Below are positions 2,426 to 59,001 of a DNA stretch of 61,610 nt, piece by piece. Numbering within the stretch: the stretch's first letter is position 1; every line of letters begins with the position of its first letter. Source of the DNA: Candidatus Woesearchaeota archaeon (lineage in GTDB: Archaea; Nanobdellota; Nanobdellia; SCGC-AAA011-G17; JACPNG01); contig JAGVYC010000008.1 of NCBI GenBank assembly GCA_018303485.1, positions 1 to 61,610 on the forward strand, read 5' to 3'. The notes beneath the pieces were generated by a model, which was not told where the DNA came from, did not search any database, and saw nothing but the letters and a program-made list of their open reading frames with translations. A program made the position numbers and the translations under genes.

Positions 2426-3427
2426 ATGAAAAAAACATCTATTAAAAAAATCTCAAGTATGCTTGAAAGAGCAGAGAACCCTTTATATCTGTATGATGAT
2501 GATGCTGACGGCTTATGCTCGTATTTGTTATTAAAAAGAAAATTCAAGAAAGGTACTGGAATTCCTGTAAAACGAGCCCCAAAAATAGATGTTGATTTTG
2601 TCAAGATATTAAACCATTATACTTATGACTTGCTTGTTATACTCGACAAACCTTTGACAGACCAAGAATTCATAGACAAAATAAAGACACCGATTGTATA
2701 CCTGGACCATCACCAAATACAGGAGCTTAAGGGCGTTTACTACTACAATTCAAGGTTTAACAAAAATGATGACTCGCCAACAACAAAAATCTGCCATGAC
2801 ATTGTTAAGCAAGATGATTGGATTGCTGCAGTTGGCATTGTTGCAGACTGGCACTTGCCAAGCTTTCTAAAAAAACTAACAAAAGCTTATCCCGACTTGA
2901 TTAAAAATACAAAAAAACCAGAAAAAATATTATTTGAAATGGAGATGGGTAAGCTTGCAAAAATCTTTTCATTCATATTGAAAGGGGATAATAAGGTGCT
3001 TAAGGAATGTGTATCTGTCTTGGAAAAAGCAACCAGCCCTTATGAAATATTGGAAAACAAGAATAGCATAATAATGCAAAGATTCGAAGAGGTAAATAAA
3101 ATCTATGAAGAATTGCTTAATAGTGCAATTAAAGAAAGAAGCAGGGATAAACTTCTTGTATTTACATATTTATCTGGCAAGGTAAGCTCTACTGGAGAGC
3201 TGGCAAATGAATTGTTCTACAAATTTCCAAAGAAGATGGTTGTTATTGCAAGGGAAAAAGACAATGAAATGAGGATGAGCATACGTGGAAAAAATGCATT
3301 AAAGCACCTGGCAAAAGCCCTTGTTGGAATTAATGGATATGGTGGCGGCCATGAAAATGCATGCGGCGGCTCTGTGGCAAAAGAGGATTTTATAAAATTT
3401 TTAAACAACTTAAGGGCTTTAATCTGA
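2426..3427 (+). CDS. DHH/DHHA1 family phosphoesterase (RecJ-like / nanoRNase-like)
   Basis: Motifs DDDADGLCS, LDHHQ and C-terminal GGGHENACGG (DHHA1 signature) are present in the canonical order. Confidence 0.75.
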   Translation: MKKTSIKKISSMLERAENPLYLYDDDADGLCSYLLLKRKFKKGTGIPVKRAPKIDVDFVKILNHYTYDLLVILDKPLTDQEFIDKIKTPIVYLDHHQIQELKGVYYYNSRFNKNDDSPTTKICHDIVKQDDWIAAVGIVADWHLPSFLKKLTKAYPDLIKNTKKPEKILFEMEMGKLAKIFSFILKGDNKVLKECVSVLEKATSPYEILENKNSIIMQRFEEVNKIYEELLNSAIKERSRDKLLVFTYLSGKVSSTGELANELFYKFPKKMVVIAREKDNEMRMSIRGKNALKHLAKALVGINGYGGGHENACGGSVAKEDFIKFLNNLRALI

Positions 3428-15146: not shown

Positions 15147-15218
15147 GGCGGCAGTAGTTTAACGGTAAAATTGGGGTCTGTGGAACCTCAGTCGTGGGTC
15201 CGACTCCCACTTGCCGCC
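15147..15218 (+). tRNA. tRNA-His (anticodon GTG) with genome-encoded G-1
   Basis: Acceptor GCGGCAG/TTGCCGC, G-1 (15147) opposite C73 (15218), D stem GTTT/AAAT, anticodon stem GGGGT/ACCTC, loop CTGTGGA (GTG at 15180-15182), T stem GTGGG/CCCAC. The T loop reads TCCGACT, which is unusual at position 55. Confidence 0.85.
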
Positions 15219-15240
15219 CTTTTGAATAGAGGAGCTAAAA

Positions 15241-16539
15241 ATGAGATTTGAATTGCCTAAAGGAACAAGGGATTTTTTGCCAGAAGAAAAGATACTAAGG
15301 GATTGCATAATCAATACCCTGAAAGAAACATTTGAATTATACGGCTATAATCCGTTGGAAACGCCTGCTTTGGAAATGTATGAAACATTGTCAAGCAAGT
15401 ATGCAGGAGGCTCTGAGATATTGAAAGAAATTTATACATTGACAGATAATGCAAAAAGAAAATTAGCCTTAAGATATGACTTAACAGTGCCCTTGGCAAG
15501 GGTGATTGCATCAAATCCAGCATTAAAAAAACCATTCAAACGCTACCAGATAGACAGGGTATGGCGCGATGGCCCGATCAAATTGGGGAGGTACAGGGAA
15601 TTTTGGCAGTGTGACGCAGATGTTATTGGCATAAAATCAATGCTTGCAGATGCTGAATTATTGGCTTTAGCAAATTCTTTTTTCAAGAAAATAAATTTAG
15701 ACGTAACAATCTGCGTAAACAACAGGAAGCTGCTTAATTCAATCTTAGATATTTATAACATACAAAAAGAAAAGCAGGAAAGCATTATAATAACATTGGA
15801 CAAAATAAAAAAAATAGGCATTAAAGGCGTTGCTGCAGAGCTTAAAAAAAAGAATATTTCAGATAAAGCCATAAAAGCCCTTCTTGAATTGTTCAACGCA
15901 AAAAATAAGGACGATTACAAATTGATTGATAAGCTTGATAAACTGCTAAAAGAAAAAGAAGGCATTAACGAAATAAAAGAGTTGTTATATTATTGCAAGG
16001 AATTTAATTTGGATAATGTAAAGCTGGAAATAAGCATGGCAAGAGGGCTTTCTTATTATACTGGCACTGTATTCGAAATCTTCATAAACAATGGCAGCCT
16101 GTCATGTTCATTGGCTGCAGGCGGAAGATTTGACAGTATGATATCTAATTTCATGAATTCAAGGGAGGAGGTTCCAGCTGTAGGCATAAGTTTTGGATTG
16201 GATACATTAATGGATGCAGTAACATTAAATAAAAAAATACAGCTAAAAAAATCAACAACTTTGGTTTACATAATACCAATAGATGCAAAAAAAGAATGCA
16301 TAAAAATAGCTAAATCTTTAAGGGATCAGGGCATAAAATGCGACATGGACCTGGTTGGAAGGTCAATAACAAAAAACTTGGAATATGTAAACAAACTTAA
16401 TATACCATATGCTTTAATCATCGGCTCTGATGAGCTGAAGCAGAAGAAACTAAAGCTCAAGGACATGGCTAGTGGTAAAGAGAAGCTTCTGAATATTGAA
16501 GTGATATTCAAAGAGCTGAAAAAACAAAATTCTGATTAA
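15241..16539 (+). CDS. hisS: histidyl-tRNA synthetase
   Basis: PKGTRDFLP, class II motifs (RYDLTVPLAR, YRREFWQCD, GGRFD) and a C-terminal anticodon-binding domain. Confidence 0.9.
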   Translation: MRFELPKGTRDFLPEEKILRDCIINTLKETFELYGYNPLETPALEMYETLSSKYAGGSEILKEIYTLTDNAKRKLALRYDLTVPLARVIASNPALKKPFKRYQIDRVWRDGPIKLGRYREFWQCDADVIGIKSMLADAELLALANSFFKKINLDVTICVNNRKLLNSILDIYNIQKEKQESIIITLDKIKKIGIKGVAAELKKKNISDKAIKALLELFNAKNKDDYKLIDKLDKLLKEKEGINEIKELLYYCKEFNLDNVKLEISMARGLSYYTGTVFEIFINNGSLSCSLAAGGRFDSMISNFMNSREEVPAVGISFGLDTLMDAVTLNKKIQLKKSTTLVYIIPIDAKKECIKIAKSLRDQGIKCDMDLVGRSITKNLEYVNKLNIPYALIIGSDELKQKKLKLKDMASGKEKLLNIEVIFKELKKQNSD

Positions 16540-17683: not shown

Positions 17684-18084
17684 GAAGAGAACAAGAAACA
17701 ATAAGATGGGGAATAGCCTATATATATGCTAGTTACAACAATACAATAATCCATATTACAGATATAACTGGTTCTGAAACCATTGCAAAATGCTCAGGCG
17801 GCATGGTAGTTAAATCCCACAGGCTTGAAAGTTCTCCAACAGCAGCAATGATGGCAGCAAAAACAGTTGCAGAACACGCACTGGAAAAAGGAATTAATGC
17901 TATTCATATAAAAGTCAAAGCTCCTGGCGGCCATTCAGGAATTAATATGCCTGGTCCGGGTGCACAGGCAGCTATAAGGGCTTTGGCAAGAAATGGACTG
18001 AGGATAGGAATTATAGAAGACATAACAGCTACCCCTTCTGATGGCTGCAGGAAAGCTCACTTCAGAAGAGGCAGAAGAGTATAA
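17680..18084 (+). CDS. rps11: 30S ribosomal protein S11 (uS11)
   Basis: [27 protein letters not shown].., and a C-terminal [14 protein letters not shown]. Confidence 0.9.
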
Positions 18085-18085
18085 A

Positions 18086-18868
18086 ATGGAAATTAAAACA
18101 TTAGAAAAGAACAAGGAGAAAATTTCTTTGTTAGCAAAAGGCATAGATGCATCTTATGCTAATACAATTCGCCGTTTAATAATAGACGAAGTTCCAACAA
18201 TGGCAATAAAATTTGTTACCTTTGACAAGAATACATCTGCTTTGTACGATGAAATGATTGCTCACAGGTTCGGATTAGTTGTTCTGAAGACAGACTTAGA
18301 ATCTTACAACTTGCAGGAGAAATGCAAATGCAATGGCAAGGGTTGCTCAAGATGCCAGGCTGAATTCTCTCTCAAAGCAGTGGGCCCTTGTAATGTTTAC
18401 GCAGAAGAAATAAAATTCAAAGACCAAAAAATAAAGGCAGTTTATCCAAAAACATTGATTTTAAAATTAGCAAAAGGCCAGCTTTTAAGCACAGAAGGCA
18501 TTGCAACATTAGGCAAGGGCAAGCACCATACAAAATATGCCCCTGCTTTAGTTTATTATCGCAGTTATCCAATAATAAAAATTAATCAAAATGAAGATAC
18601 ATCTGCTGCAGTTAAAGTCTGCCCAACTCATGTATTCAGGCTTACTGGAAAAAAAGCAAATGTTGTTGAGCCATTAAAATGCATATTGTGCATGGCCTGT
18701 GTTGATGCCTGCAACAATGCTATAACAGTTGAAGGAAGCAAAACAGATTTTTTAATGTTCATTGAATCATATGGCCAGCTTAAGCACAAGGAGATTGTTG
18801 AAACAGCAATTTCAGTCATGAATGAAAAGCTGGATGATTTTGGAAAAGCTTTAAAAGCAGTTAAGTGA
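18086..18868 (+). CDS. rpoD: RNA polymerase subunit Rpo3/RpoD with ferredoxin-like Cys cluster
   Basis: ANTIRRLIIDEVPTMAI dimerisation domain and CILCMACVDAC. The ATG at 18086 immediately follows the S11 stop; the ORF-track start at 18041 lies inside S11. Confidence 0.85.
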   Translation: MEIKTLEKNKEKISLLAKGIDASYANTIRRLIIDEVPTMAIKFVTFDKNTSALYDEMIAHRFGLVVLKTDLESYNLQEKCKCNGKGCSRCQAEFSLKAVGPCNVYAEEIKFKDQKIKAVYPKTLILKLAKGQLLSTEGIATLGKGKHHTKYAPALVYYRSYPIIKINQNEDTSAAVKVCPTHVFRLTGKKANVVEPLKCILCMACVDACNNAITVEGSKTDFLMFIESYGQLKHKEIVETAISVMNEKLDDFGKALKAVK

Positions 18869-18882
18869 CTGATGATTCATTT

Positions 18883-19025
18883 GCGGGGATGTCAGAGTGG
18901 CCAAATGAGCTACCTTGAGGAAGCATTTTAAAAGGGTAGTGGCTTAGTGCCTTCGCAGGTTCGAACATAAGAAGAACTAGGGTTTATCAAAGCCCGGAGC
19001 TTATAAGAAAGTCCTGCTTCCCGCA
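18883..19025 (+). tRNA. tRNA-Leu (anticodon GAG), class II, with two introns: 13 nt at 37/38 and 46 nt in the T loop (about 59/60)
   Basis: Acceptor GCGGGGA/TTCCCGC with A73. Anticodon stem CTACC/GGTAG, GAG at 18917-18919, long variable arm. T stem GCAGG (18955-59)/CCTGC (19013-17) is separated by 53 nt instead of 7. Removing 18921-18933 and 18966-19011 gives an 84-nt class II tRNA with T loop TTCGAAT. Confidence 0.7.
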
Positions 19026-19063: not shown

Positions 19064-19357
19064 ATGGTAAGTTTGACAAACATTGAACAAACATATAAAC
19101 AACATGAAGAGGAAATAGAAAGGGTGATTATTGAAGCATTAAGAATATCACATGGTGGTTATGCAACGATTGCAGAAATAGCAGCTCATGCAAGGCAAAG
19201 TGATTTGATTGATAGATTTGACGGCTGTCCAGTGCAGTGTGAAATTTATATTGGAAAATGCCTTTCAGATTTGCTTAAGAGCAATGAAATCGAAGAATTA
19301 AGAGGTAAAGGAAACAATGGAGTTAAGGGCGATAAGTCATATATGATGAAGAAATAA
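19064..19357 (+). CDS. small hypothetical protein (wHTH-like) inserted between tRNA-Leu and rpl18e
   Basis: Strong SD-like GGGAGG lies 6 nt upstream, and the stop is 1 nt before the rpl18e ATG. IIEALRISHGGYATIAEIAAHA looks like a helix-turn-helix. Confidence 0.5.
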   Translation: MVSLTNIEQTYKQHEEEIERVIIEALRISHGGYATIAEIAAHARQSDLIDRFDGCPVQCEIYIGKCLSDLLKSNEIEELRGKGNNGVKGDKSYMMKK

Positions 19358-22603: not shown

Positions 22604-23227
22604 ATGAAAAAGCATGATGTTTATGAATTTATAATCTCTATATCAAAAGAAATCTCAAAAAAAAGAGAAGGCGCTTTGTTTGTAATAGCAAATACTAAGA
22701 GATTAAATAACAAATACAGCCTGCTATTTCCACAGATACAGAAAAAATTTTATATATCAGAAAAAGGCTCAGAAAAAATAATTGAAAAATTAGCAACATT
22801 AGACGGCGCTGTTTTAATCTCAGATTCTGGCATGCTTCTTGCTTACGGTGCTAAATTAAAAAGATCTATTCCGGTAAGGGGTCATGGCACAAAACATGCA
22901 GCAGCTGCAGGCACAACAAGTAGCATAAAAGAGGCAACTGCAATTCTAGTTAGCGAGGAAGACAGCTTAATCAAGATTTTTCAGCACGGCAAAATAATAC
23001 TTGAAATGGACTCTTACGAAAACCCAAAATCTCTTGAAGACAAAATAATAGCTTTCATTTCAGAGGGTGATACAGCATTATTGACAGCAGCAGGGGTTTC
23101 AACAGTTTTTCTTGGAAGCGCAGCTATAGCACCCTTGGCAATTGTTGGCGGTACTTATTTAGCTATAAGAACAGCTGGTGGCATAATAAAAAGGAACTGG
23201 GAATCATTGGTTAAGAAAAAGCATTAG
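22604..23227 (+). CDS. diadenylate cyclase (DAC/DisA_N) domain protein with a C-terminal hydrophobic segment
   Basis: REGALFVI, LDGAVLISDSG, GHGTKHAAAAG (variant of GTRHRAA) and ILVSEEDSLI match the DAC motifs in order. The C-terminus is ALLTAAGVSTVFLGSAAIAPLAIVGGTYLAI. Confidence 0.7.
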   Translation: MKKHDVYEFIISISKEISKKREGALFVIANTKRLNNKYSLLFPQIQKKFYISEKGSEKIIEKLATLDGAVLISDSGMLLAYGAKLKRSIPVRGHGTKHAAAAGTTSSIKEATAILVSEEDSLIKIFQHGKIILEMDSYENPKSLEDKIIAFISEGDTALLTAAGVSTVFLGSAAIAPLAIVGGTYLAIRTAGGIIKRNWESLVKKKH

Positions 23228-23535
23228 CATTGTTTCTTTTTCCAAAATGGTATTCTTGTATACTTCTTGCAATTAAAACAGTAGGTTAGCACAATTTTTT
23301 TGTTTATTCTTGTCTGGCAGTTAACACCATGCTTTAAGTAGCTATAGCAGTGTTTGCAGTATTTTCTTTTGAATTTTCTAGGCATCCTTAGCTTTATTTT
23401 CATTGCTATCTTTCTTGCTAGTTCAACATACCTGTTTGCCAGCTTTGGATTTTTCTTAAATATTTCATCAGCTTCACTAAAAAGAATTTCTATCCTTTCA
23501 TTTGCTATCCTTGTTTGTTTTGCTTTGTTTTCCAT
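23224..23535 (-). CDS. rnp4: RNase P protein component 4 (Rpp21/Rpr2)
   Basis: ANERIEILFSEA ... LANRYVELARKI followed by the zinc ribbon CKHCYSYL ... CFNCKKY. Confidence 0.8.
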   Translation of the reverse strand: MENKAKQTRIANERIEILFSEADEIFKKNPKLANRYVELARKIAMKIKLRMPRKFKRKYCKHCYSYLKHGVNCQTRINKKIVLTYCFNCKKYTRIPFWKKKQC

Positions 23536-23587
23536 AAAGATAAAGAATTAATGTGATTTTAAAAACCTTTGTCTGGAAAAATAAAGT

Positions 23588-23698
23588 GGACAGCTAACCA
23601 ATCTTCCCACATAAAATGCAGTACCAATTGGAACGTGTACCTGTTTAACTGCTGTGTTCGAGATGGGAACAGGTGGAACCAGGTAGCTATGGCCGTCC
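23588..23698 (-). rRNA. rrf: 5S ribosomal RNA (unlinked to 16S/23S)
   Basis: The reverse strand reads GGACGGCCATAGCTACCTGGTTCCACCTGTTCCCATCTCGAACACAGCAGTTAAACAGGTACACGTTCCAATTGGTACTG...GGGAAGATTGGTTAGCTGTCC. It shows the 5S hallmarks CCATAGC, CCCATCTCGAAC, AGTTAAAC and GTACTG, with helix I GGACGGC/GCTGTCC and a T-run after the 3' end. Confidence 0.85.
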
Positions 23699-23793
23699 TA
23701 TTGAAATTCATTAAGATTCTATTTATAAGCCTTTTGTTGAAGTCAGTTGTTCACGAAGTACAAAAGTGGGAACCGAATCATCTAAACTGGCTT

Positions 23794-35726: not shown

Positions 35727-37148
35727 TTAAGAATTTAGAGAAGATTTGATCATTTCCATGACTTTTTTTCCCTCTATTTTTCCCCGATATTTTGCCATCA
35801 CTATACCCATTATTGCATTTGCACTTAAATTTTTATTATCTTTTATTATTTTTTCTATGCTTTTTACAATTATATTTTCATCAGCAGGCTTATAATCTTC
35901 AATATTGACAAATTTTCCTTTAGCCCTATCTTCAAGTATTTTCATCATGGCTTCCTTTGTTGCTCTCTCCTTGTCCAAGAATCCAAGAAGCTCCTCAATT
36001 TCTTTATTGCTGGCATTATAACTAAACCTTGTTTTTATTTCCTTTGGCACTTCTACTATAGATATAGCTATTAAACTTGGCAGTATATTCTTAAAACGTT
36101 CAACTAGTAATCTAAAGTAAGTTTCATCTTCAGCAATTTCTAATGCCAGCTGCGGGCTTATTGCGAATTCCTTTTCCAGTTTTATTGCTTTATTTGTTAA
36201 TAATTCAGGCAATTTTATTTCTTTAAGCAATTCATTTGTTATGGGTATTGTTACAATGTCGGTTTCCGGATACATTCTAGAAGCGCTAGGCATTGGCCTT
36301 TGGAAGGATGTTGTTAAATTTGGCTCTGCTTTTCTTACCTCTGCTTTTAACATTTCTCCCTTCTTTAATAGCTCTTCTTGCCTGCTTATTTCATATTCAA
36401 TTATTTTTGGTATGCTCCTCATGTCTTGAAAACCTTTTATTTCAACCCTTGGATTTCCTTTTATGCTTAGATTAATATCCTGCCTTATTGTTCCAAGCCC
36501 CCTTTTTACCTTGCCGCTTGACCTTAAAATCATTCCCAATATAGAAGCTGTTTCTTTTGCATGTTCTGGATCTTTTATGCTTGCATCTGTTGCAATTTCT
36601 ATTAATGGAACTCCTAATCTGTCCAGCCTGTAATTAACTGATTTTTCATTTTCATTAATCTTTTTTGCAGCCTCTTCTTCCAAGCATATTGATAATATAC
36701 CCACTCTTCCTTTTGATGTTTCTATAAATCCATTGCTTGCAATTAATGCAGTCCTTTGAAATCCAGATGTATTGCTGCCGTCCAAAACAATTTTCCTCAT
36801 GAATTGCACAACATCAACTGGTTTTGCATTTACCAATAAAGCAATCTCCAATGCTGTTTTTAATGCATCAATATTTGCATTATGGGGAGGTTCATCATCA
36901 GCTTCTATTAAACAGCTTGAACCTGAACAGCCTTCATAGTAAAATGTTTTTCCTTTTTTTATTTCATACATTGCAGCAGCATCCATTGTTCCCATTTCAC
37001 CTGAAGAAATATGCAGTTTTCTTTCAAAAAATACATCTGCTGGATTTGGATCATTAACTAAGCTCGGGCATTTGCAGAATAATTTGTGCATTTCTAACTG
37101 CTGGTGTATTTCTATGCCGATTTTCAATCCAAAATTTTCAGGCCTCAT
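35727..37148 (-). CDS. gatE: Glu-tRNA(Gln) amidotransferase subunit E, unusually short form
   Basis: GLKIGIEIHQQL, FMRKIVLDGSNTSGFQRT, GKVKRGLGTIRQDINLSI, RMYPETD, and a C-terminal YqeY-like tail. Adjacent to gatD. 473 aa. Confidence 0.8.
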   Translation of the reverse strand: MRPENFGLKIGIEIHQQLEMHKLFCKCPSLVNDPNPADVFFERKLHISSGEMGTMDAAAMYEIKKGKTFYYEGCSGSSCLIEADDEPPHNANIDALKTALEIALLVNAKPVDVVQFMRKIVLDGSNTSGFQRTALIASNGFIETSKGRVGILSICLEEEAAKKINENEKSVNYRLDRLGVPLIEIATDASIKDPEHAKETASILGMILRSSGKVKRGLGTIRQDINLSIKGNPRVEIKGFQDMRSIPKIIEYEISRQEELLKKGEMLKAEVRKAEPNLTTSFQRPMPSASRMYPETDIVTIPITNELLKEIKLPELLTNKAIKLEKEFAISPQLALEIAEDETYFRLLVERFKNILPSLIAISIVEVPKEIKTRFSYNASNKEIEELLGFLDKERATKEAMMKILEDRAKGKFVNIEDYKPADENIIVKSIEKIIKDNKNLSANAIMGIVMAKYRGKIEGKKVMEMIKSSLNS

Positions 37149-37386
37149 TTCTTCTTTCCCAAATCAATTTATTGTTTTTTCTAACTTCTCTAATTCGATG
37201 CAAAGGCAATTCAATATTTTTGTTGCCTGTTTCAAGTGTTAAAAAATTTCCAAATTCTTTTATGTCATCAAATCTAAAGCTCATTTTCTTTTTTAAAATC
37301 CTGTCAGCATAAAAAAATTCATAATCATCCTTCTTTAAGTTCTTGTCAAACCTGATCTTGTCAATCAGTTCCTTTATTGAAATCAT
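37138..37386 (-). CDS. DUF504/UPF0248-like small protein
   Basis: IPLHRIREVRKNNKLIWERR C-terminal signature. It overlaps both gatD (26 nt) and gatE (11 nt). Confidence 0.55.
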   Translation of the reverse strand: MISIKELIDKIRFDKNLKKDDYEFFYADRILKKKMSFRFDDIKEFGNFLTLETGNKNIELPLHRIREVRKNNKLIWERRNEA

Positions 37387-38668
37387 ATTTGCTTAAATAT
37401 TCATCAGGCAGTATTCTTTCTTTGATTTCCCCTCTTATATCTTTTTTAATAAGCTCTTTAACAATGTCTTTCTTGTAATTGCCCAATAACCAGGCTAATT
37501 TTATATATGCAGTTTCTGTCAGCATATCTTCTCCAGAAATAATTCCAATATCCAAAAGATTTCTTCCGGGGCTGTAGACATTCATATTGACGCTGCCAAA
37601 AATGCATTGTGATGTCATTACAACTATGCAGCCGGATTTGACAAGCTTTTTTAATTCATTGAATATTTTTTTATTTTCACCCTGGCTTATTGGCATATGC
37701 CCCATGCCAGTTCCTTCTATTATTAATCCCTTATATCCCTTGTAGCATTTTATTATATTTGCATTAATATTAGGATATGTTTTTAATATCCCGACTTTTT
37801 CTTCAAACTTTATTTTCAAAACATTTTTCTTAGGTTTTTCTTTTTCAATCTTTTTAAGAATTTCAACAGTTCTTGTTTTGTAATTTACCCTTGCTATGGC
37901 ATTGTCATTTATTGGCTTGAAAGCGTCCCTCCTTGATGTATGCATCTTTCTTGTTTTGACAGCCGGCAGGATTATACAATTATCATCAGATTCTGATTCA
38001 TGCATGCATATAGCTACTTGATGAAACTCTGTCTTGTTTATGAATTCTATAGCGCCAACCAGATTCATTGCAGCATCGCTTGAACCCCGATCAGAGCTTC
38101 TTTGAGCCCCAACAATTAGGATGGGAACATTCAAGTGTTCAAACATAAAGCTTAATGCAGCGGCTGTGTAGTGCATAGTATCAGTTCCATGCCCGATTAT
38201 TATTCCCTTAACACCAGAATTTATTTCTTTTAAAACAGCCTTTGCAATTTTAGCATAATTCTCAAATCTCATCTCTTCAGAAAACATGTTGCTTATGAAA
38301 ACGCTCTTTATGTTTGCAATTTCTCTGATTTCAGGAAATAGATCTAATAATTCTTCTGGCTTGAATCTGGAAATAACCCCGCCAGTTTCATAATCGACCT
38401 TGCTTGCAAGAGTGCCGCCTGTATGCAATATAGCTATCTTCGGCAGACCTTTTTTTTGTTCTACCGCTGTCTTTTTAGTTTTTATATTGTTTTTTTTAAC
38501 TTCCTTTGCAAGCTTAATGCTCTTTATGCTGTTTCTGTTTATACCCACATTATAGCCGCTCTCCAGCTTTAGAAATATAACATCTTTGCTTGAATTAGGC
38601 ATTATCCTGCCTTTATAATTTGAACCATCAGCAGCAATATCAACGAAATCACCTATTTTTACAGACAT
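37361..38668 (-). CDS. gatD: Glu-tRNA(Gln) amidotransferase subunit D (asparaginase-like)
   Basis: ILHTGGTLAS, GHGTDTMHYTAAAL, and an N-terminal AD domain. Confidence 0.9.
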   Translation of the reverse strand: MSVKIGDFVDIAADGSNYKGRIMPNSSKDVIFLKLESGYNVGINRNSIKSIKLAKEVKKNNIKTKKTAVEQKKGLPKIAILHTGGTLASKVDYETGGVISRFKPEELLDLFPEIREIANIKSVFISNMFSEEMRFENYAKIAKAVLKEINSGVKGIIIGHGTDTMHYTAAALSFMFEHLNVPILIVGAQRSSDRGSSDAAMNLVGAIEFINKTEFHQVAICMHESESDDNCIILPAVKTRKMHTSRRDAFKPINDNAIARVNYKTRTVEILKKIEKEKPKKNVLKIKFEEKVGILKTYPNINANIIKCYKGYKGLIIEGTGMGHMPISQGENKKIFNELKKLVKSGCIVVMTSQCIFGSVNMNVYSPGRNLLDIGIISGEDMLTETAYIKLAWLLGNYKKDIVKELIKKDIRGEIKERILPDEYLSKYDFNKGTD

Positions 38669-49960: not shown

Positions 49961-50155
49961 ATGGAATTGAAAAGAAAGATCTACAAAAGGGGAAGTTCTT
50001 ATGAAACAACAATCCCACAGCCATTACTATTCAAGCTAGATATTGACAAGAAGAAATATCAAATAATCTTTAAGTTCGACAATCAGGCAGATAAATGGTA
50101 CATTGAATTTGAAAATATAAAGAAAGTTAAAAAAGAGGATGAAAAGAAGAGATAA
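49961..50155 (+). CDS. AbrB/SpoVT-like small DNA-binding protein, copy 1
   Basis: KIYKRGSSYETTIPQPLLFKL is a looped-hinge-helix-type N-terminus. The 3' end overlaps the giant ORF start by 17 nt. Confidence 0.55.
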   Translation: MELKRKIYKRGSSYETTIPQPLLFKLDIDKKKYQIIFKFDNQADKWYIEFENIKKVKKEDEKKR

Positions 50156-53100
50156 TAAAGTAAAAAAGAAAGTAAAGAAAAACATCAAAATCTTTGTAAT
50201 ACTAGTCAGTATTATCTTGGCTTTGTTAATAATTAAAATTATAAATATTCAAGAGATTACCGGATTTGCCGTTTTGACAACAATAACCCAGGCTAATTTC
50301 AATGCGGGAACCTATAACGAAACATTTTATAATACAACAACGCTGGCTGTGCAGTTAAATTTAACTGATGACAGAGCAATTTTGTCTGGTAATTATACAA
50401 GCCAGGTATTTGATGCTGTTATTGCTACAAATTGGAGGAATTTATCATGGACAGAGAATATAACAAATAGATCTGGAAATGTTTCATTTAGAGTAAGAAG
50501 CTGTTTTACTTCTAATTGCGCTGAGCAAAGGCCTTTTGTCGGCCCCGATAATACAACAATTACATACTTCTGGCAGAGTAATCTTAGTTTGTTAAATAAT
50601 ACCCTAACACCAGATTCAAGATATTTCCAGTACATGGCTTTCTTTGCTGCATTGGACAATGATTCAAATGCTGATGGGCCAATATTGCACAATGTAAGCG
50701 TTGATTATGGTGATTGTGTTGAACCAATAAATGATATGTATATCAATGAAAATACAACTTTATGCTTTGGAACTTTTTATGTTAATGATACTGATGGTGA
50801 CAGTAATGTAATAACAATAAGCAATGATTCTGTTTTTGTAACCTGCAATAAAACTAATCTGGTTGGAAATCTATCTGGAAACGGATTTTATTTAAACTCT
50901 AAGTCTTATGTGACAATTAGTGGTTGTTGGATGGTTAATTATACAACTGCTATAAGATTAATTACATCCAATTTTACAACTATCACTGAGAATAACATAA
51001 CAAATATAACAGTTAGTGGTATAAGAATTAGTGATTATTCCAATAGCAATATTATAGATAATAATTCAATTATGTTTGCAAATGGTAGCAGTACAGCAGC
51101 TATTTTCTTACAAAGTAACAGCTTAAACAACACTGTCAAAAAAAATTTGATAAAACATAATGGCAATAAAGGACTTGATATTAATGCAGGTAACACTACA
51201 ATAATAAATAATACCATTATTAATAATACCTATGGGATAAGTGTTGGTTCTGTATTAAATATAACAATAGCTAACAATACCATAGCGTATAATGATCTGG
51301 ATGGTATAAATGGAGCGGGCAATGGTGGTTGGAATAGCAGCCTTATTTATGACAATTTTATAATTGGTAATCTTGGTAGTGGTGGATGCGCAGGTAGTTT
51401 TGGTATTAATATTATTCTTTCATACAATAACTACTTTTACAATAATATTCTTAATAATAGTGGATGTGATGTATATGATAATGGTCAAAACTTCTGGAAC
51501 ACTAGCAATTATTCAGGAACGAATATTATAGGGGGGCCTATGATTGGAGGCAATTACTATTCTGATTATGGATTTTATGATTATTATTCTGATGGAGATG
51601 GAATTGGAGAGCTAAGCTACAGGAATGGCCTAATTAATAGCTATGATGCACTGCCTTTAACAAACAGCAGATGCCTAGTACCAAATAATATTCCAAGAAT
51701 AGAAAGAAGTGTTGTTTTATGTCCTGGCATATATAGTGTTGTAGATAATAGCGATAATGGTGCAATGAACATTACAAATTCATCTGTAATAATAGAATGC
51801 AACCAAACAAGAATAATCGGTACTAGAAATCAAGAAAGAATAATAAATACCAATCCTGGTAGCGGCCAATTGACAAATATAACAGTAAAAAACTGCTATT
51901 TTGAACCACGAGGAGCAGCTATACAAATGATCAATACAAGCTCCAGTTACATTTATGACAATGTAATCAATATGTCTGCAAATGTCATAACTACAATATA
52001 CCTTTACAATGTCAATAACAGCTTAATTGCAAATAACACTTTTGCAAATACATCTAATGAAGCAATAGAGATGAATGACGTAAGCAATAGCATATTTGAA
52101 AACAACACTATATGGAAAATTTCTGGTCATGGCATGGAGTTTGAGAGCAAGCTGCCATCAACAAATGTAACCATAAGAAACAACTTGATAAACTATACCG
52201 TCAGTAACGGCATAACAAGCAATGTAGGCACTGCAATTTATATAAACAACTCAAAATTTTACAATAACACTTTTGCAAATATTGGCGCAACTGGTGATGG
52301 CAGTGTTGAAGCTTGCATTGTTATAGCTGGTTTTGGAAATGAATTCATTGGCAATAAACTCTTAAATTGTACAGGCATTGGAATAAGCTCTGGTTTAGGC
52401 GTTACAGGTGCCATAGTAAATTCAGGCGATAGTTACTTCATAAAATCCAATACAGTAAATGGAACAGCAAACAATAATAATCCTGTATTTAACATCCAGG
52501 GTTCAAATATAACAATAATAAACAACACAATTGAGCGCAGAGGGACTGGAACAGCCATAGCAATGTCATTGAAGGATATAAATAATTCTTACATAGTCAA
52601 TAATACAATAATGAATATTTCATACGGCATAGTTATTTCAGATGGCGATGTAAATCCCTCGGGCAGCTTAAACAGCAAAAACATAACAATAACTGGAAAT
52701 GTATTTTTGAACATAACTAATAATGCAATGATTCTGGCAGGCGACAACTTTACGATTTACAATAATACTCTGGTCTCATACACACCAAGCTCTATAACAG
52801 CCCCAGGAATTTATGGCATAAGCTTAAACAACTCCAAGGTATACAACAACACAATTTATAGGTATGCAGAAGGCATAGCAATATTCAACAGCGAGAATAC
52901 AAGCATAACAAACAATTCCTTGTACGAAAACATATTATTCGGCATAAACATAACCTCTTCCAAAAATATGTCAATAACCAACAACGCAATAAACAACAAT
53001 ACACAGCAGGGCATCCTAATATTAAAATCATCCAACATAACAGTAGAAAAAAACATAATATTCAACAACTCTAAAGACGGCATATCAGTAAACTTCTCAA

Positions 53101-55232
53101 ATTACACAATAATTATAAACAACACAATAAGAAACAATGTCATCTCAGGCATCTCCATATTCGGCTCTAATAGCACAAAGATATTAAACAATTCAATATT
53201 CAACAGCAAGAGGGATGGAATCTACATTGAAGACTCAGAAGGCATATCAATCTTAGAGAATATAATATTAAATAACTCGCAAAGTGGGATTTACGACCCA
53301 TCATCAAACAACTTGGTTTATAACAACAGCGAGGCAGGAATAAGATTAAATTCAAGCAATTACAGCATCATAGAAAATAACAATCTGAGCTACAATGGAA
53401 TAATCTCTTATGTTACAGAATTTTACATGAGCGCCGCTGTATATAGAAATGATGCTTTGGGTGCCGTATACAATTTCACTGCTACTGCTGGAGCGTCAGG
53501 CAGTGAATTTTTCTATATCCTCAATCTTGGGGAATCAATAAGCGTTGTAACAAACAATACAAACGTAAGCCTTCTTGTGAATGGAACAGCCAATGTACAC
53601 CTTGCCTTGGTGAAAATAAATTCTTCTGATATCGGCTGGGGGCATAGCAATCTGACAACATTCTTTGATAATAGCGTTGCCTCGAGCTGCTTGGGCATAG
53701 CACAATATATATCTAATACAGTTCTGCCCAACTCTGCAGATGAAACAAACTGCACGTACTTCCAGGCCAATATCTTCACTGCAAATGGCAATAACAATTA
53801 TACTTATAATGGATTGACAAATGCAACAATAACTCAAGACTCAAGAACTTTAACCCCATCATTATCAGCAGTTTCAACAGTAAACATTGCTAACTTAATC
53901 CTATCAGAATCATCAGATAATAATATAACAAACAACACCATAACATTAAGTTCTGGCTATGGTGTCTTGTTAGATACAGTGAATAATAGCATATTTACAA
54001 ACAACACAATTTTAAGGAATATACAGCCAGCTGTCAGGGCATTAGGAGATTCAAGCTTGATAAACAAAATAATAAACAGCACAAATGTAACAACAAGTGT
54101 TGCATCCAGCATACTGAAAGTCTACTGGTTCTTAATGGTTTATGCTCACGATGGAAATACAGCATTTGAAAACGTAAATGTTTCATTCTACAATAAAACA
54201 GGAATCTACATAACATCAGCTTTAACCTTAAGTCTTGGCTATACCCCTGAATTAACATTGCTTGAATACCAGCATGACGGTAATACAAGAACATATTATA
54301 CGAATTATACAACAAATGCAACAAGGCCAGGTACATTGGATAAGGCCTCAATATCCTATAACTTTACAAGCTCCAGTTTAGTTGATTTAAGCATGCCAGC
54401 TGATCAATCAGGAGGCGGCGGTGGCGGAGGCGGCGGTGGCGACAATCCACCAGGTGGCTGTACAGACGAATGTTCATCAGGCCAGAGAACTTGCTCAGGC
54501 TTATCTGCTTACAAAGAATGCGGCAATTATGATGATGATGTTTGCTTGGAATTTGGTTCTGGAAGAGCATGCAGTAATGACTTGAAATGTTACAGTGGAA
54601 ATTGTATTCTAGAATGCGCTCCAGACTGGCAGTGTTCTTCCTGGAGCTCTTGCATTAACGAAAAGCAAACAAGAACCTGCATAGACAAAAACATCTGCAA
54701 TTCTCAAAAGCCAATGGAAGAGATAAAATGCTCAGAATTAATTAAAATAAAAGAAGCAGCACCAGAATATAATGTAACATGCTTTGAAGCTAAAGGCCTT
54801 TCAGAAGAAGAAATAATTGTATATAGTGATTTGCTGAAAATAACTTCCTGCAAGGATGAAAGAGAAAAATTGGTAAATATAGATACGAGATTCAGGTGCA
54901 ATGGCATTGAAATAAGCATAAATGATGCCTCATTAAATATTGTTTACAAGGAAAAGCCTAGCTTCTTCCTTAACATGAATCAAAATGACCAGCATAAAAA
55001 ATACTGCCCATGGTGCTTCAATAATAAAAAAGACTATGATGAAACAGGCATTGACTGCGGAGGCTCTTGCATGCCTTGCAATGAAAAATCAAGGCTAGAA
55101 TTTCCATTAAAGCCAGCAAAGCCGGATTACAGGCTAGCAATTTTCATTGGAAGCTCAATGGTTGCAATATCTATTGGTTATTTGTTTTTATTCAGAAGAA
55201 AAAGAAATAGGAAAATAAAAAAATGGAATTGA
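50139..55232 (+). CDS. giant (1697 aa) surface protein: N-terminal anchor/signal, long parallel beta-helix repeat region, Gly linker, Cys-rich modules, C-terminal TM anchor
   Basis: Dozens of ~22-aa N-N-(T/S)-I...G-I repeats (PbH1-like) and very dense N-x-S/T sequons. Also a (GGN)10 tract, CAPDWQCSSWSSCINEKQTRTC, DETGIDCGGSCMPC, and a terminal LAIFIGSSMVAISIGYLFLF-RRKRNRK. Confidence 0.85.
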   Translation: MKRRDNKVKKKVKKNIKIFVILVSIILALLIIKIINIQEITGFAVLTTITQANFNAGTYNETFYNTTTLAVQLNLTDDRAILSGNYTSQVFDAVIATNWRNLSWTENITNRSGNVSFRVRSCFTSNCAEQRPFVGPDNTTITYFWQSNLSLLNNTLTPDSRYFQYMAFFAALDNDSNADGPILHNVSVDYGDCVEPINDMYINENTTLCFGTFYVNDTDGDSNVITISNDSVFVTCNKTNLVGNLSGNGFYLNSKSYVTISGCWMVNYTTAIRLITSNFTTITENNITNITVSGIRISDYSNSNIIDNNSIMFANGSSTAAIFLQSNSLNNTVKKNLIKHNGNKGLDINAGNTTIINNTIINNTYGISVGSVLNITIANNTIAYNDLDGINGAGNGGWNSSLIYDNFIIGNLGSGGCAGSFGINIILSYNNYFYNNILNNSGCDVYDNGQNFWNTSNYSGTNIIGGPMIGGNYYSDYGFYDYYSDGDGIGELSYRNGLINSYDALPLTNSRCLVPNNIPRIERSVVLCPGIYSVVDNSDNGAMNITNSSVIIECNQTRIIGTRNQERIINTNPGSGQLTNITVKNCYFEPRGAAIQMINTSSSYIYDNVINMSANVITTIYLYNVNNSLIANNTFANTSNEAIEMNDVSNSIFENNTIWKISGHGMEFESKLPSTNVTIRNNLINYTVSNGITSNVGTAIYINNSKFYNNTFANIGATGDGSVEACIVIAGFGNEFIGNKLLNCTGIGISSGLGVTGAIVNSGDSYFIKSNTVNGTANNNNPVFNIQGSNITIINNTIERRGTGTAIAMSLKDINNSYIVNNTIMNISYGIVISDGDVNPSGSLNSKNITITGNVFLNITNNAMILAGDNFTIYNNTLVSYTPSSITAPGIYGISLNNSKVYNNTIYRYAEGIAIFNSENTSITNNSLYENILFGINITSSKNMSITNNAINNNTQQGILILKSSNITVEKNIIFNNSKDGISVNFSNYTIIINNTIRNNVISGISIFGSNSTKILNNSIFNSKRDGIYIEDSEGISILENIILNNSQSGIYDPSSNNLVYNNSEAGIRLNSSNYSIIENNNLSYNGIISYVTEFYMSAAVYRNDALGAVYNFTATAGASGSEFFYILNLGESISVVTNNTNVSLLVNGTANVHLALVKINSSDIGWGHSNLTTFFDNSVASSCLGIAQYISNTVLPNSADETNCTYFQANIFTANGNNNYTYNGLTNATITQDSRTLTPSLSAVSTVNIANLILSESSDNNITNNTITLSSGYGVLLDTVNNSIFTNNTILRNIQPAVRALGDSSLINKIINSTNVTTSVASSILKVYWFLMVYAHDGNTAFENVNVSFYNKTGIYITSALTLSLGYTPELTLLEYQHDGNTRTYYTNYTTNATRPGTLDKASISYNFTSSSLVDLSMPADQSGGGGGGGGGGDNPPGGCTDECSSGQRTCSGLSAYKECGNYDDDVCLEFGSGRACSNDLKCYSGNCILECAPDWQCSSWSSCINEKQTRTCIDKNICNSQKPMEEIKCSELIKIKEAAPEYNVTCFEAKGLSEEEIIVYSDLLKITSCKDEREKLVNIDTRFRCNGIEISINDASLNIVYKEKPSFFLNMNQNDQHKKYCPWCFNNKKDYDETGIDCGGSCMPCNEKSRLEFPLKPAKPDYRLAIFIGSSMVAISIGYLFLFRRKRNRKIKKWN

Positions 55233-55490: not shown

Positions 55491-56039
55491 ATGGAACAAA
55501 AAAGTTACAAATTGGAAATTGTAAATGAGCTTTTGAATAACAGCAACCATGTAAGGGGACTGGCAAAAGAACTAAACATAAATCACATGAATATATCAAG
55601 GAAAATAAAAGAGCTTGCAAAAGAAAATGTTGTGGATTACAAGGAAGAAGGTAAAAATAAGACATATTTTTTAAAGAAAAGTATAGAAGCAAGAAACTAT
55701 GCATTTCTAGCTGAAAACTATAAGTTAAACAGGTTTTTAGGAAGCTACCCTAATTTAAGGAGGGTAATTGAGAATATTCAAAAAGACAGGCGAATCAGAC
55801 TGGCAATTTTGTATGGATCTTATGCTAAGGGCATTGCTAAACCTAATAGCGATATCGATATTTATATCGACACAGACAACAAAATGATAAAGGAAGACCT
55901 TAGTTTATTTGATACAAAATTAAGCATAAAGACAGGTAGTTACAACAAATCCAACTTGTTGATTAAAGAAATTGAAAAGAACCATATTATACTAAAAGGT
56001 GTTGAACAATATTATGAAAAGAACAAATTTTTTGATTAA
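55491..56039 (+). CDS. wHTH + minimal nucleotidyltransferase (MNT) domain protein, antitoxin-type
   Basis: N-terminal HTH (VRGLAKELNINHMNISRKIKEL) and the NTase motif LYGSYAKG...SDIDIYID. Confidence 0.7.
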   Translation: MEQKSYKLEIVNELLNNSNHVRGLAKELNINHMNISRKIKELAKENVVDYKEEGKNKTYFLKKSIEARNYAFLAENYKLNRFLGSYPNLRRVIENIQKDRRIRLAILYGSYAKGIAKPNSDIDIYIDTDNKMIKEDLSLFDTKLSIKTGSYNKSNLLIKEIEKNHIILKGVEQYYEKNKFFD

Positions 56040-56490
56040 GTTAAATAAAAAAGGTATAATTGATATTGTAAAACCCAGCGACGAAATATCTCAGTCATAT
56101 ATTATGAAGTCTGAAAGCAATCTTATTTCTGCAAAAATTCTGTTGGCAAATGAGAGACTAGAAGAATCTGTTGGCCTTGCGTATTATAGTATGTATCACT
56201 CCCTAACAGCACTTTTATTTAAAATAGGTATAAAATCAGAAAATCATAATGCTTCAATAATCTTGCTAAAAGAATTAGTTGGTTTGTCTAATAATGATAT
56301 TCTCAATGCCAAAAAGGAAAGAGTGGACAAACAATACTATGTTAATTTTATGATAACAAAAGAGGCAGTTAATGACACTATAAAACAAGCTGAAAGATTC
56401 AATAGTCATATAGTGGATTTTATTTCAAAAATTAATAATGAAGATATTAATACTTATAGGAAAAAGTTTATCAAGTTAATTAAAGAGTAA
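56014..56490 (+). CDS. HEPN domain protein, toxin-type partner of MNT
   Basis: Helical ~158-aa protein overlapping the MNT 3' end. AYYSMYHSLTALL and KKERVDKQY fit HEPN helices. The pairing with MNT is the main evidence. Confidence 0.6.
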   Translation: MKRTNFLIKLNKKGIIDIVKPSDEISQSYIMKSESNLISAKILLANERLEESVGLAYYSMYHSLTALLFKIGIKSENHNASIILLKELVGLSNNDILNAKKERVDKQYYVNFMITKEAVNDTIKQAERFNSHIVDFISKINNEDINTYRKKFIKLIKE

Positions 56491-57260: not shown

Positions 57261-59001
57261 ATGGATTATGGCTTATTGGTAGATTGTTATGAATCTTTAA
57301 ATAAAACAACAAAAAGGCTTGAAAAAACCTACATAATCTCAAAATTGCTAAAAAAAATACAAAAAGAAGACATTCAACAGGTAATCTATCTTCTTCAAGG
57401 CCTTGTCTTTCCTCCTTGGGACGAGCATAAACTAGGCATGAGTTCTTTGCTCATAGTCAAAGCCCTATCATCTATAACTGGAAATTCAAAAGAAAAAGTC
57501 GAAAAGCTATGGAAAAAAGAAGGAGACCTAGGCTTGGTTTCAGAGCTGTTAATCAAAGACATAAAGCAAAAAACATTAATGCAGAAAAAACTTACAACGA
57601 GCTTGATTTTTAACAACTTAAGAAAGCTCGCAGAATTAACAGGGAAAGGGGCAATAAACAGAAAAATCCAGCTTCTTTCAGAATTGCTTGCAAACTCCAG
57701 GCCATTGGAATCGAAGTATATAGTAAAAACAGTCCTGAATAATTTAAGGATAGGCATAGCAGAAGGCATTATAAGGGATGCAATTGTCTGGGCATTTTTC
57801 GAGCATGAAATAAAATTCAGCTATAATGAGAAAGAAAACATATTTGATGTTAATAGGGAAGATTACAACAAGTACATTGATGCAATTCAGTCAGCATATG
57901 ATGTTACAAATGATTACGGTGAAATAGCTTTGATAGCATTGGCAAGAGGATTGCAGGGATTAAAAGAGACCCAGATAGACATAAGCAAGCCAATAAATCC
58001 AATGCTGGCCATAAGGGTAGAATCAGTAGATGATGCGCTAGAAGCATTGGGCACTCCTGTTTTATGCGATTTAAAATTAGATGGCTTCAGGTTATTGATT
58101 CATAGAAAAGAAAACAAGTTCTGGTTTTACACTAGAAGATTGGAAAATGTTACAAAACAGTTTGCAGAGTTAATGCCAATACTGAATGATTGCATCAAAG
58201 GCTCTTCTTATATCATAGATTCAGAAGTTGTTGGTTATGATCCAAAAACAAAAAAATATCTTCCTTTTCAGGCAATCTCTCAAAGGATAAAAAGAAAGTA
58301 TAATATAGAAAAAATAGCAAAGGAGGTTCCAGTTGAGATAAATATATTTGATATAGTGTATTACAATGGCAAGCCTTTGCTTGAGCATCCGCAAATGGAA
58401 AGGCGCGAGCTGCTTGAAAAGATAGTTAAAGAAATTCCTAATAAAAAAAAAAATAATAAGTTCAGATCCAAGAGAAATACAAGGGTTCTTTGATAATGCA
58501 ATACGCCTTGGCCTTGAAGGAGTCATGGTAAAAAATATAAATACCAAGTATGTATCTGGAAGAAAAGTAGGCGGCTGGATTAAGCTAAAGGCAATTCCTG
58601 AAACATTAGACCTGGTTATAACAGAGTCTGATTATGGCGAAGGAAAAAGAGCAAAGACCTTGAGCAGTTATACAGTTTCATGTTCATCCAAGAACAAGCT
58701 GCTTGTTGTTGGCAAGGTCTCAACAGGTGTAAAAGAAAAAGAAGGGGAATTTACCTATTCAGAAATTACAAAATTATTAAAGCCGTTAATTATGATGGAG
58801 GAGGGAAAGCATGTCATCTTGAAGCCATGGCTTGTAATAGAAGTTGCTTATGAAGAAATACAAAGATCTCCAAAATACGAATCAGGTTTTGCATTAAGAT
58901 TTCCAAAAGTATTAAGAATCCGCTTGGATAAGGGTGTAAAAGACATTTCTGCATTGGCAGATATAGAAAGAATCTACAAAAAACAGAAAGGAAAAAGATA
59001 A
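57261..59001 (+). CDS. lig: ATP-dependent DNA ligase, reading frame broken at an A11 tract (58443-58453)
   Basis: ORF 57261-58493 carries the DNA-binding and adenylation domains (CDLKLDGFRLLIH). ORF 58525-59001, in the +1 frame, carries LEGVMVK, GGWIKLK and the OB domain. Reading IISSDPREIQGFFDNAIRLGLEGVMVK in the second frame bridges the gap. Confidence 0.8.

Follow-up and report, generated by a model that had tools for sequence, protein, structure and literature searches.

Analysis of a 61,610-nt (61.6-kb) stretch of DNA from a Woesearchaeota (DPANN) archaeon, here called the window, revealed a tRNA-Leu(GAG) gene that is interrupted by two introns and, judging from its sequence and from that of related loci, is very probably functional and spliced by proteins at bulge-helix-bulge motifs (Table 1). 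The exon/intron architecture recurs in close relatives, and the splice sites obey a pairing rule that holds across the orthologous genes of the lineage. An earlier note on this DNA had proposed both introns; the boundaries given there (18921-18933 and 18966-19011) were returned unchanged by a spliced aligner whose model did not contain the window, and the helices and bulges drawn for both splice motifs, with their coordinates, all match the sequence.

Table 1. Features of the tRNA-Leu(GAG) locus (positions in the window)
Feature	Position	Strand	Basis
rpoD (RNA polymerase subunit D), conserved upstream neighbor, ends 14 nt before the tRNA gene	18041..18868	+	Open reading frame; loci of relatives
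TTTAAAA, candidate archaeal TATA-like box, ~30 nt upstream of the tRNA 5' end, within the 3' end of rpoD	18850..18856	+	Read from the sequence
tRNA-Leu(GAG) gene, complete: three exons, two introns, CCA not encoded	18883..19025	+	Sequence; ARAGORN on the spliced form; spliced aligner
Acceptor stem GCGGGGA/TTCCCGC; discriminator A at 19025	18883..18889 and 19018..19024	+	
Exon 1, tRNA positions 1-37: acceptor 5' strand, D arm, anticodon stem 5' strand, anticodon GAG (18917-18919)	18883..18920	+	ARAGORN; spliced aligner; covariance model
Intron 1, 13 nt, AAGCATTTTAAAA, canonical 37/38 site, bulge-helix-loop type without inner helix	18921..18933	+	ARAGORN; spliced aligner; pairing rule; covariance model
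Splice motif 1: central helix TTGA (18915-18918)/TTAA (18928-18931) with one G.U; bulges GGA (18919-18921) and AAG (18932-18934)	18915..18934	+	Sequence; pairing test
Exon 2, positions 38-59: anticodon stem 3' strand, long variable arm GGCTTAGTGCC, T stem 5' strand, T loop TTCGAA	18934..18965	+	ARAGORN; orthologue alignment; spliced aligner
Intron 2, 46 nt, T loop, 59/60	18966..19011	+	ARAGORN; spliced aligner; folding; pairing rule
Splice motif 2 (relaxed)	18955..19017	+	Minimum-energy folds; pair counts in six relatives
Motif 2, outer helix: T stem GCAGG/CCTGC	18955..18959 and 19013..19017	+	
Motif 2, central helix: TTCG/AGAA, three pairs and a G.A mismatch	18960..18963 and 19006..19009	+	
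Motif 2, bulges: AAC and AGT	18964..18966 and 19010..19012	+	
Intron 2, inner helix: ATAAG/CTTAT; single extra A at 19005, opposite the 5' bulge	18967..18971 and 19000..19004	+	
Intron 2, apical hairpin: GGGTTT/AAGCCC	18980..18985 and 18990..18995	+	
Exon 3, positions 60-73: last T-loop base, T stem 3' strand, acceptor 3' strand, discriminator A	19012..19025	+	ARAGORN; spliced aligner

Exons and introns follow one another on the forward strand as GCGGGGATGTCAGAGTGGCCAAATGAGCTACCTTGAGG / aagcattttaaaa / GGGTAGTGGCTTAGTGCCTTCGCAGGTTCGAA / cataag...aagaaag / TCCTGCTTCCCGCA. The joined exons have the hallmarks of a class II tRNA-Leu, namely, a long variable arm, anticodon GAG, and A73, and all universal tRNA bases are intact (U8, A14, G18G19, A21, U33, G53, UUC, A58, C61, and A73). 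The core GGCUUAGUGCC of the variable arm (UGGCUUAGUGCCU) is well conserved among orthologues, a minority of which carry CCCUUAGUGGG.

In the bulge-helix-bulge geometry, a 4-bp helix lies between two opposite 3-nt bulges, each bulge is cut behind its second base, and position 32 pairs with the third-last intron base (-3). Intron 1 shows this arrangement in full, with three of three pairs in the outer helix and four of four in the central helix, and intron 2 shows it in relaxed form. The strict hBHBh' form was found at neither site: intron 1 carries a 6-nt loop instead of an inner helix, and intron 2, although the two helices are present, shows one mismatch and is asymmetric by 1 nt. Both introns are thus of the relaxed class.

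Standard finders were silent at this locus. On the genomic sequence, ARAGORN made no call at 18883-19025, with or without intron mode, and reported a tRNA-His at 15148-15219 as the only tRNA in the whole window. Likewise, Rfam gave no match at the locus, whether at the gathering threshold, at E values of up to 10 in a local search, or at values of up to 0.5 across the window; only the tRNA-His and a 5S rRNA were found in the window, and a permissive local scan yielded chance matches alone. Once 18921-18933 and 18966-19011 were deleted, however, ARAGORN called an 84-nt tRNA-Leu(GAG) with a 7-bp acceptor stem, a long variable arm, T loop TTCGAAT, and discriminator A, which is the identity, class, and spliced length that had been proposed. 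Deletion of intron 2 alone gave the same tRNA-Leu(GAG) with a 13-nt intron in the anticodon loop. We read the silence of the finders as the sign of a hidden gene, not of a missing one. tRNAscan-SE 2.0 uses intron models whose training genomes came from Crenarchaeota, Euryarchaeota, and Thaumarchaeota (PMC8450103).

Introns were located independently with a spliced aligner, built as a position-weight model from 26 intronless orthologues with the window left out and allowed to make long jumps on genomic DNA. The aligner placed the introns at exactly the positions given in Table 1 with a score of 91.4 bits, compared with a mean of -9.4 bits (sd 8.4, maximum 11.4) for 175 further 350-nt segments taken from both strands of the window. 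At a few loci (intron 1 of L087 and L093, and L023), its boundaries were wrong and were re-parsed by hand. The same 26 orthologues also served to build a covariance model (R1), which matched 18883-18957 with 41.2 bits (E = 1.4e-9) and an insertion directly after UUGAGG. It agrees with the proposed structure for exon 1, intron 1, and exon 2; it did not bridge the 46-nt T-loop insertion, closing instead on a spurious UCGCA, and is silent on intron 2. Both introns are therefore supported by ARAGORN on the spliced product, by orthologue-based spliced alignment, by the covariance model (silent on intron 2), and by five relatives with introns at the same sites. Furthermore, five independent assemblies agree in every base of the 143-nt precursor, which also occurs with zero differences in an 11.7-kb contig of a groundwater run; it is thus not an assembly artifact.

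We extracted 80 rpoD loci from species-representative genomes, 79 of which had enough downstream sequence to be evaluated, and found a tRNA-Leu (GAG or AAG) just downstream of rpoD in 63 of them. A tRNA-Leu at this position, mentioned in the earlier note for some archaeal operons, is thus the rule in this lineage. Of these orthologues, 26 lack introns, and six of the intronless genes scored 49.5 to 58.7 bits on the Rfam tRNA model (gathering score 29). The spliced product of the window aligns column for column with the 26 intronless genes. Its anticodon arm, CTACC-TTGAGGG-GGTAG, recurs unchanged in intronless L058, and its T arm, GCAGG-TTCGAAT-CCTGC, does so in intronless L017 and L031. These identities support both junctions, and with them the unusual G at position 38. 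The canonical 37/38 placement of intron 1 is borne out by its four central pairs, by the loop shared with L058, and by the position of the covariance-model insertion, and placement of intron 2 at about 59/60 is borne out by the spliced aligner and the T-arm identity.

Insertion sites varied among the 63 orthologues, with about five sites in use: 24 carried an intron at 37/38, eight at 59/60, eight in the D arm (in most of these genes following GGUCAA of the D loop), and five at 29/30, and two introns were present in 8 of the 63 genes. The 59/60 site is used in L007, L008, L050, L023, L048, L057, L065, and L068 (the eight of the 63 loci), as well as in the window, L087, L091, and L093; at this site L065 has a 14-nt intron without inner helix, and L048 has a strict motif. 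Introns of 11 to 16 nt without an inner helix are common in orthologues, which makes the 13-nt intron of the window typical of its lineage. Examples of orthologue introns (set L007 to L086, Woesearchaeota and Nanoarchaeia) are L051 3382-3405, L053 3369-3419, L041 3338-3366, L069 3378-3388, and L065 3380-3393. Several orthologues are mislabeled by ARAGORN as tRNA-Ala, tRNA-Phe, or tRNA-Ser with odd introns. We tentatively suggest that this single orthologous tRNA-Leu after rpoD may be a hotspot at which introns are gained and lost in Woesearchaeota and Nanoarchaeia, a reading that is possible rather than favored; no published equivalent of this survey of intron sites was found in the literature searched.

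From the bulge-helix-bulge geometry we derived a pairing test, in which the four exon bases preceding the last two are compared with intron bases -6 to -3. Among 53 orthologue introns, all four pairs formed in 36 and three of four in 13 (at least three in 49 of 53), compared with 3.1% and 14.5% (together 18%) for random placement of segments of the same length. Most failures were boundary errors of the aligner; after parsing by hand, intron 1 of L087 gave TTGA/TCAG, and L023 gave TTCA/TGAA. The rule holds at all insertion sites seen, that is, in the D arm and at about 29/30, 37/38, and 59/60.

The drawn motifs fared differently in RNA folding. Minimum-energy folding reproduced motif 2 (T stem, UUC/GAA, AGU bulge, AUAAG/CUUAU, and apical hairpin) both in the 143-nt precursor and in the T arm taken by itself. 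For motif 1, in contrast, RNAfold preferred a 3x3 internal loop (-9.1 kcal/mol) over the staggered bulges (-4.5 kcal/mol). We set this preference aside because nearest-neighbor rules penalize bulges and because only the staggered register explains the conserved tetramer complementary to UUGA. The stability of the whole-precursor fold was unexceptional (z = -1.4).

The exact junctions, above all those of intron 2, are placed by the pairing rule and the orthologues, and we considered whether the architecture might be real with each junction one base off, so that intron 1 would lie at 38/39 (loop UUGAGGA) and intron 2 at 60/61 (T loop UUCGAAC). ARAGORN indeed draws intron 1 one base over, at 38/39, several intronless orthologues have the T loop TTCGAAC, and the cut sites are inferred from the pairing rule only. 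In the shifted register, however, the central helix of intron 2 (TCGA/GAAA) has one of four pairs by hand count, compared with four of four for intron 1 and three of four for intron 2 in the proposed register. In addition, U32 pairs in the proposed register with a purine at intron position -3, as it does in canonical precursors, and the loop UUGAGGG is that of an intronless orthologue (L058), which leaves the one-base shift a slim chance. The caution voiced in the earlier note about the relaxed second motif is nevertheless justified, as the fourth pair of its central helix is G.A in the window and G-C in L008 and L087.

Five closer relatives (L087, L007, L008, L091, and L093; RpoD 69 to 77% identical) all have introns at the same two sites. 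The exons of these six genes are nearly invariant (2 of 84 positions differ between the window and L007), whereas intron 1 measures 13, 13, 23, 31, 25, and 14 nt and intron 2 measures 46, 43, 38, 38, 38, and 37 nt, with differing interiors. In the alignment of the six sequences, 95.8% of the structure cells are paired, compared with 39 to 51% when the partners are slid by 1 to 3 columns. One pair of the intron 2 inner helix changes between A-U and C-G (ATAAG/CTTAT versus ATCAG/CTGAT), one pair of the T stem changes from G-C to A-U, and the tetramer pairing with UUGA is TTAA, TCAA, or TCAG. Covariation thus appears to keep the splice helices while the introns diverge; with six sequences and two compensatory pairs, it is supportive rather than conclusive.

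These observations bear on the possibility that the locus is a tRNA pseudogene in decay, which has gathered two insertions and yields no working tRNA. The silence of the standard finders would fit such a gene, as would the imperfect splice motif 2 and the lack of an inner helix in intron 1. Decay would hardly leave exons almost invariant in six relatives while introns diverge in sequence and length, preserve splice helices by compensatory changes, and spare every universal tRNA base; moreover, this copy occupies the conserved position after rpoD, and short introns without inner helix are common in its orthologues. We consider the chance of a pseudogene very slim. That the 46-nt T-loop segment is another kind of element (a self-splicing intron, the host of a small guide RNA, or a mobile insertion) is a negligible prospect: group I introns have reportedly been described in archaea, in a paper that mentions Woesearchaeota (PMC6125680), but 46 nt is far below the size of group I or II introns, the region has no Rfam match at E values of up to 10, no C/D box motifs were read in the segment, no second copy of intron 2 occurs in the window or in 90 related loci, and the segment obeys bulge-helix-bulge spacing.

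For the two-intron tRNA-Leu(GAG) gene, we infer the following course of processing, including the enzymes, the order of events, and the promoter. Transcription of the precursor would start at a promoter of its own or run through from rpoD. As the two splice motifs sit in separate arms, they would form independently. In the anticodon arm, positions 32 to 35 (UUGA) would pair with intron bases 8 to 11 (UUAA), leaving the 3-nt bulges GGA and AAG. In the T arm, positions 54 to 57 (UUCG) would pair with AGAA near the 3' end of the intron, stacked on the T stem, with bulges AAC and AGU. The archaeal splicing endonuclease (EndA) would then cut after the second base of each bulge, four cuts in all, and an RtcB-type ligase would join the three exons to the 84-nt tRNA. 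CCA would be added last, after splicing, since none is encoded. The T-loop intron must block contact between T loop and D loop, and its removal would probably precede the steps that read the tRNA elbow.

Neither EndA nor RtcB was found in a Pfam scan of the 58 open reading frames (ORFs) of the window. A tblastn search with an approximate Methanocaldococcus EndA query gave no match, and no splicing endonuclease was present in the window or in the related loci fetched. Among the genes of the window are those for an RNase P Rpp21 subunit and for a small protein with an MJ1316 domain. The latter is an 82-codon ORF (37138-37386, reverse strand) between a GatB/GatE-domain gene (35727-37148) and a GatD-domain gene (37361-38668), and Pfam associates its domain with recognition of RNA cyclic-group (cyclic-phosphate) ends. 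Endonuclease cleavage of tRNA introns leaves cyclic-phosphate ends, and it is therefore conceivable that this ORF is linked to tRNA intron processing.

The gene order around the locus is S13, S4, S11, RpoD, tRNA-Leu, a 97-codon ORF, L18e, L13, and S9. The earlier note had put the gene between rpoD and rpl18e; it does follow rpoD directly, but the 97-codon ORF (19064-19357, forward strand) separates it from rpl18e. This ORF has no Pfam match, and the five close relatives carry ORFs of 91 to 127 codons in the same place whose sequences are mutually unrecognizable, except for L007 versus L091. We regard this ORF as a hypervariable small gene within a conserved ribosomal operon. The TTTAAAA stretch upstream of the tRNA is a possible promoter element. 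In relative L050, positions 3215-3365, which run from the 3' end of rpoD through exon 1 and an unspliced 12-nt intron 1, have an exact counterpart in a 151-nt metatranscriptome contig of a marine study. This contig may represent a read-through precursor or else DNA carry-over; it hints weakly at read-through transcription and is not evidence of splicing.

The window has a GC content of about 33%, its RpoD is closest to proteins labeled Woesearchaeota or Nanoarchaeia, and its sequence was found in groundwater and soil metagenomes. In the groundwater runs, the contig word depth of exon 2 (18938-18971) is in the thousands, versus roughly 10 to 30 in the flanks. Many co-occurring relatives in these runs have exon 2 in common and differ in their introns, and the assemblies break at exon-intron borders, with loose ends that represent intronless and alternative-intron versions.

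Several other features of the window were recorded. The tRNA-His(GUG) gene at 15148-15219 (forward strand) has no intron and lies 21 nt upstream of a histidyl-tRNA synthetase gene (15241-16539, forward strand); in some relatives, a tRNA-His with an intron is called upstream of rpoD, e.g., in L046 (63 nt) and L073 (18 nt). A lone 5S rRNA gene (23585-23700, reverse strand), with no 16S or 23S rRNA gene nearby, adjoins the gene for the RNase P Rpr2/Rpp21 subunit (23224-23535, reverse strand). An ATP-dependent DNA ligase is encoded in two forward-strand ORFs in different frames, 57261-58493 with the N-terminal and adenylation domains and 58525-59001 with the C-terminal domain, separated by a 31-nt gap; a frameshift or an error of assembly could account for this, or the gene may really be split. 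The 1,697-codon ORF at 50139-55232 (forward strand), with right-handed beta-helix and NosD repeats, probably encodes a large surface protein, and near it lies a nucleotidyltransferase/HEPN pair (55491-56039 and 56014-56490) that resembles a toxin-antitoxin module.

The closest known parallel comes from ARMAN-2 (Candidatus Micrarchaeum acidiphilum), whose pre-tRNA-Cys(GCA) has a 13-nt relaxed intron at 59/60 that is cleaved by EndA in vitro and whose pre-tRNA-Pro(GGG) carries introns at 53/54 and 59/60, both in the T loop (Fujishima et al. 2011, PMC3239211). Both cases share a DPANN host, a 59/60 intron with a relaxed motif stacked on the T stem, and multiple introns in one tRNA gene. In contrast to ARMAN-2, the gene described here belongs to another phylum, tRNA, and intron sequence, its 59/60 intron is 46 nt long and keeps the inner helix, both bulges are present with one relaxed, and its partner intron lies at the canonical 37/38 site. 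The enzymes would also differ, as that of ARMAN-2 is the three-unit epsilon2 type, while an alpha4 type with an extra loop has been reported for Woesearchaeota (PMC5829648).

Compared with the canonical archaeal 37/38 intron, given as a strict 3-4-3 bulge-helix-bulge by Marck and Grosjean 2003 as cited in PMC4090602, intron 1 has the same site, a 4-bp central helix from positions 32 to 35, 3-nt bulges, and cuts after the second bulge base, but it is only 13 nt long and, without inner helix, is of the bulge-helix-loop type. This form is reportedly not accepted by the strict alpha4 and alpha'2 enzymes (PMC3239211). Up to three introns per tRNA gene are known from Thermoproteales (Crenarchaeota) (PMC4033280, PMC8450103). 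As far as the citing papers convey the original descriptions (Sugahara et al. 2007, 2008, cited in PMC4090602, PMC4033280, and PMC8450103), those multi-intron genes resemble ours in having multiple bulge-helix-bulge introns, noncanonical sites, and relaxed motifs and in being missed by standard finders. The Thermoproteales are hyperthermophilic, GC-rich TACK archaea with a heterotetrameric endonuclease carrying the crenarchaeal loop, whereas the present host is a groundwater DPANN archaeon with 33% GC. Introns at 59/60, relaxed motifs, and multi-intron tRNAs are thus already documented, and the locus corrects an annotation without introducing a new mechanism.

A DPANN survey by Kaneta et al. 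that included one Woesearchaeota genome found alpha4-type EndAs with an extra L3 loop in multiple lineages, associated this loop with more disrupted tRNA genes, and pointed to undetected disrupted genes behind incomplete DPANN tRNA sets (PMC5829648). If the EndA of the present lineage is of the homotetramer type as reported, which is usually considered strict, its introns would imply routine processing of relaxed substrates. If the hotspot reading is true, the orthologue introns would form a natural comparative set for how such introns move. Without this gene, the genome would appear to lack tRNA-Leu(GAG), which reads CUU and CUC. With its T-loop intron at 59/60 and relaxed motif, the locus is a further well-supported case in a lineage in which genes of this kind, although expected, are under-annotated, and it may serve as a worked example of the undetected disrupted tRNA genes of DPANN archaea, with the rpoD neighborhood as an anchor for finding others.
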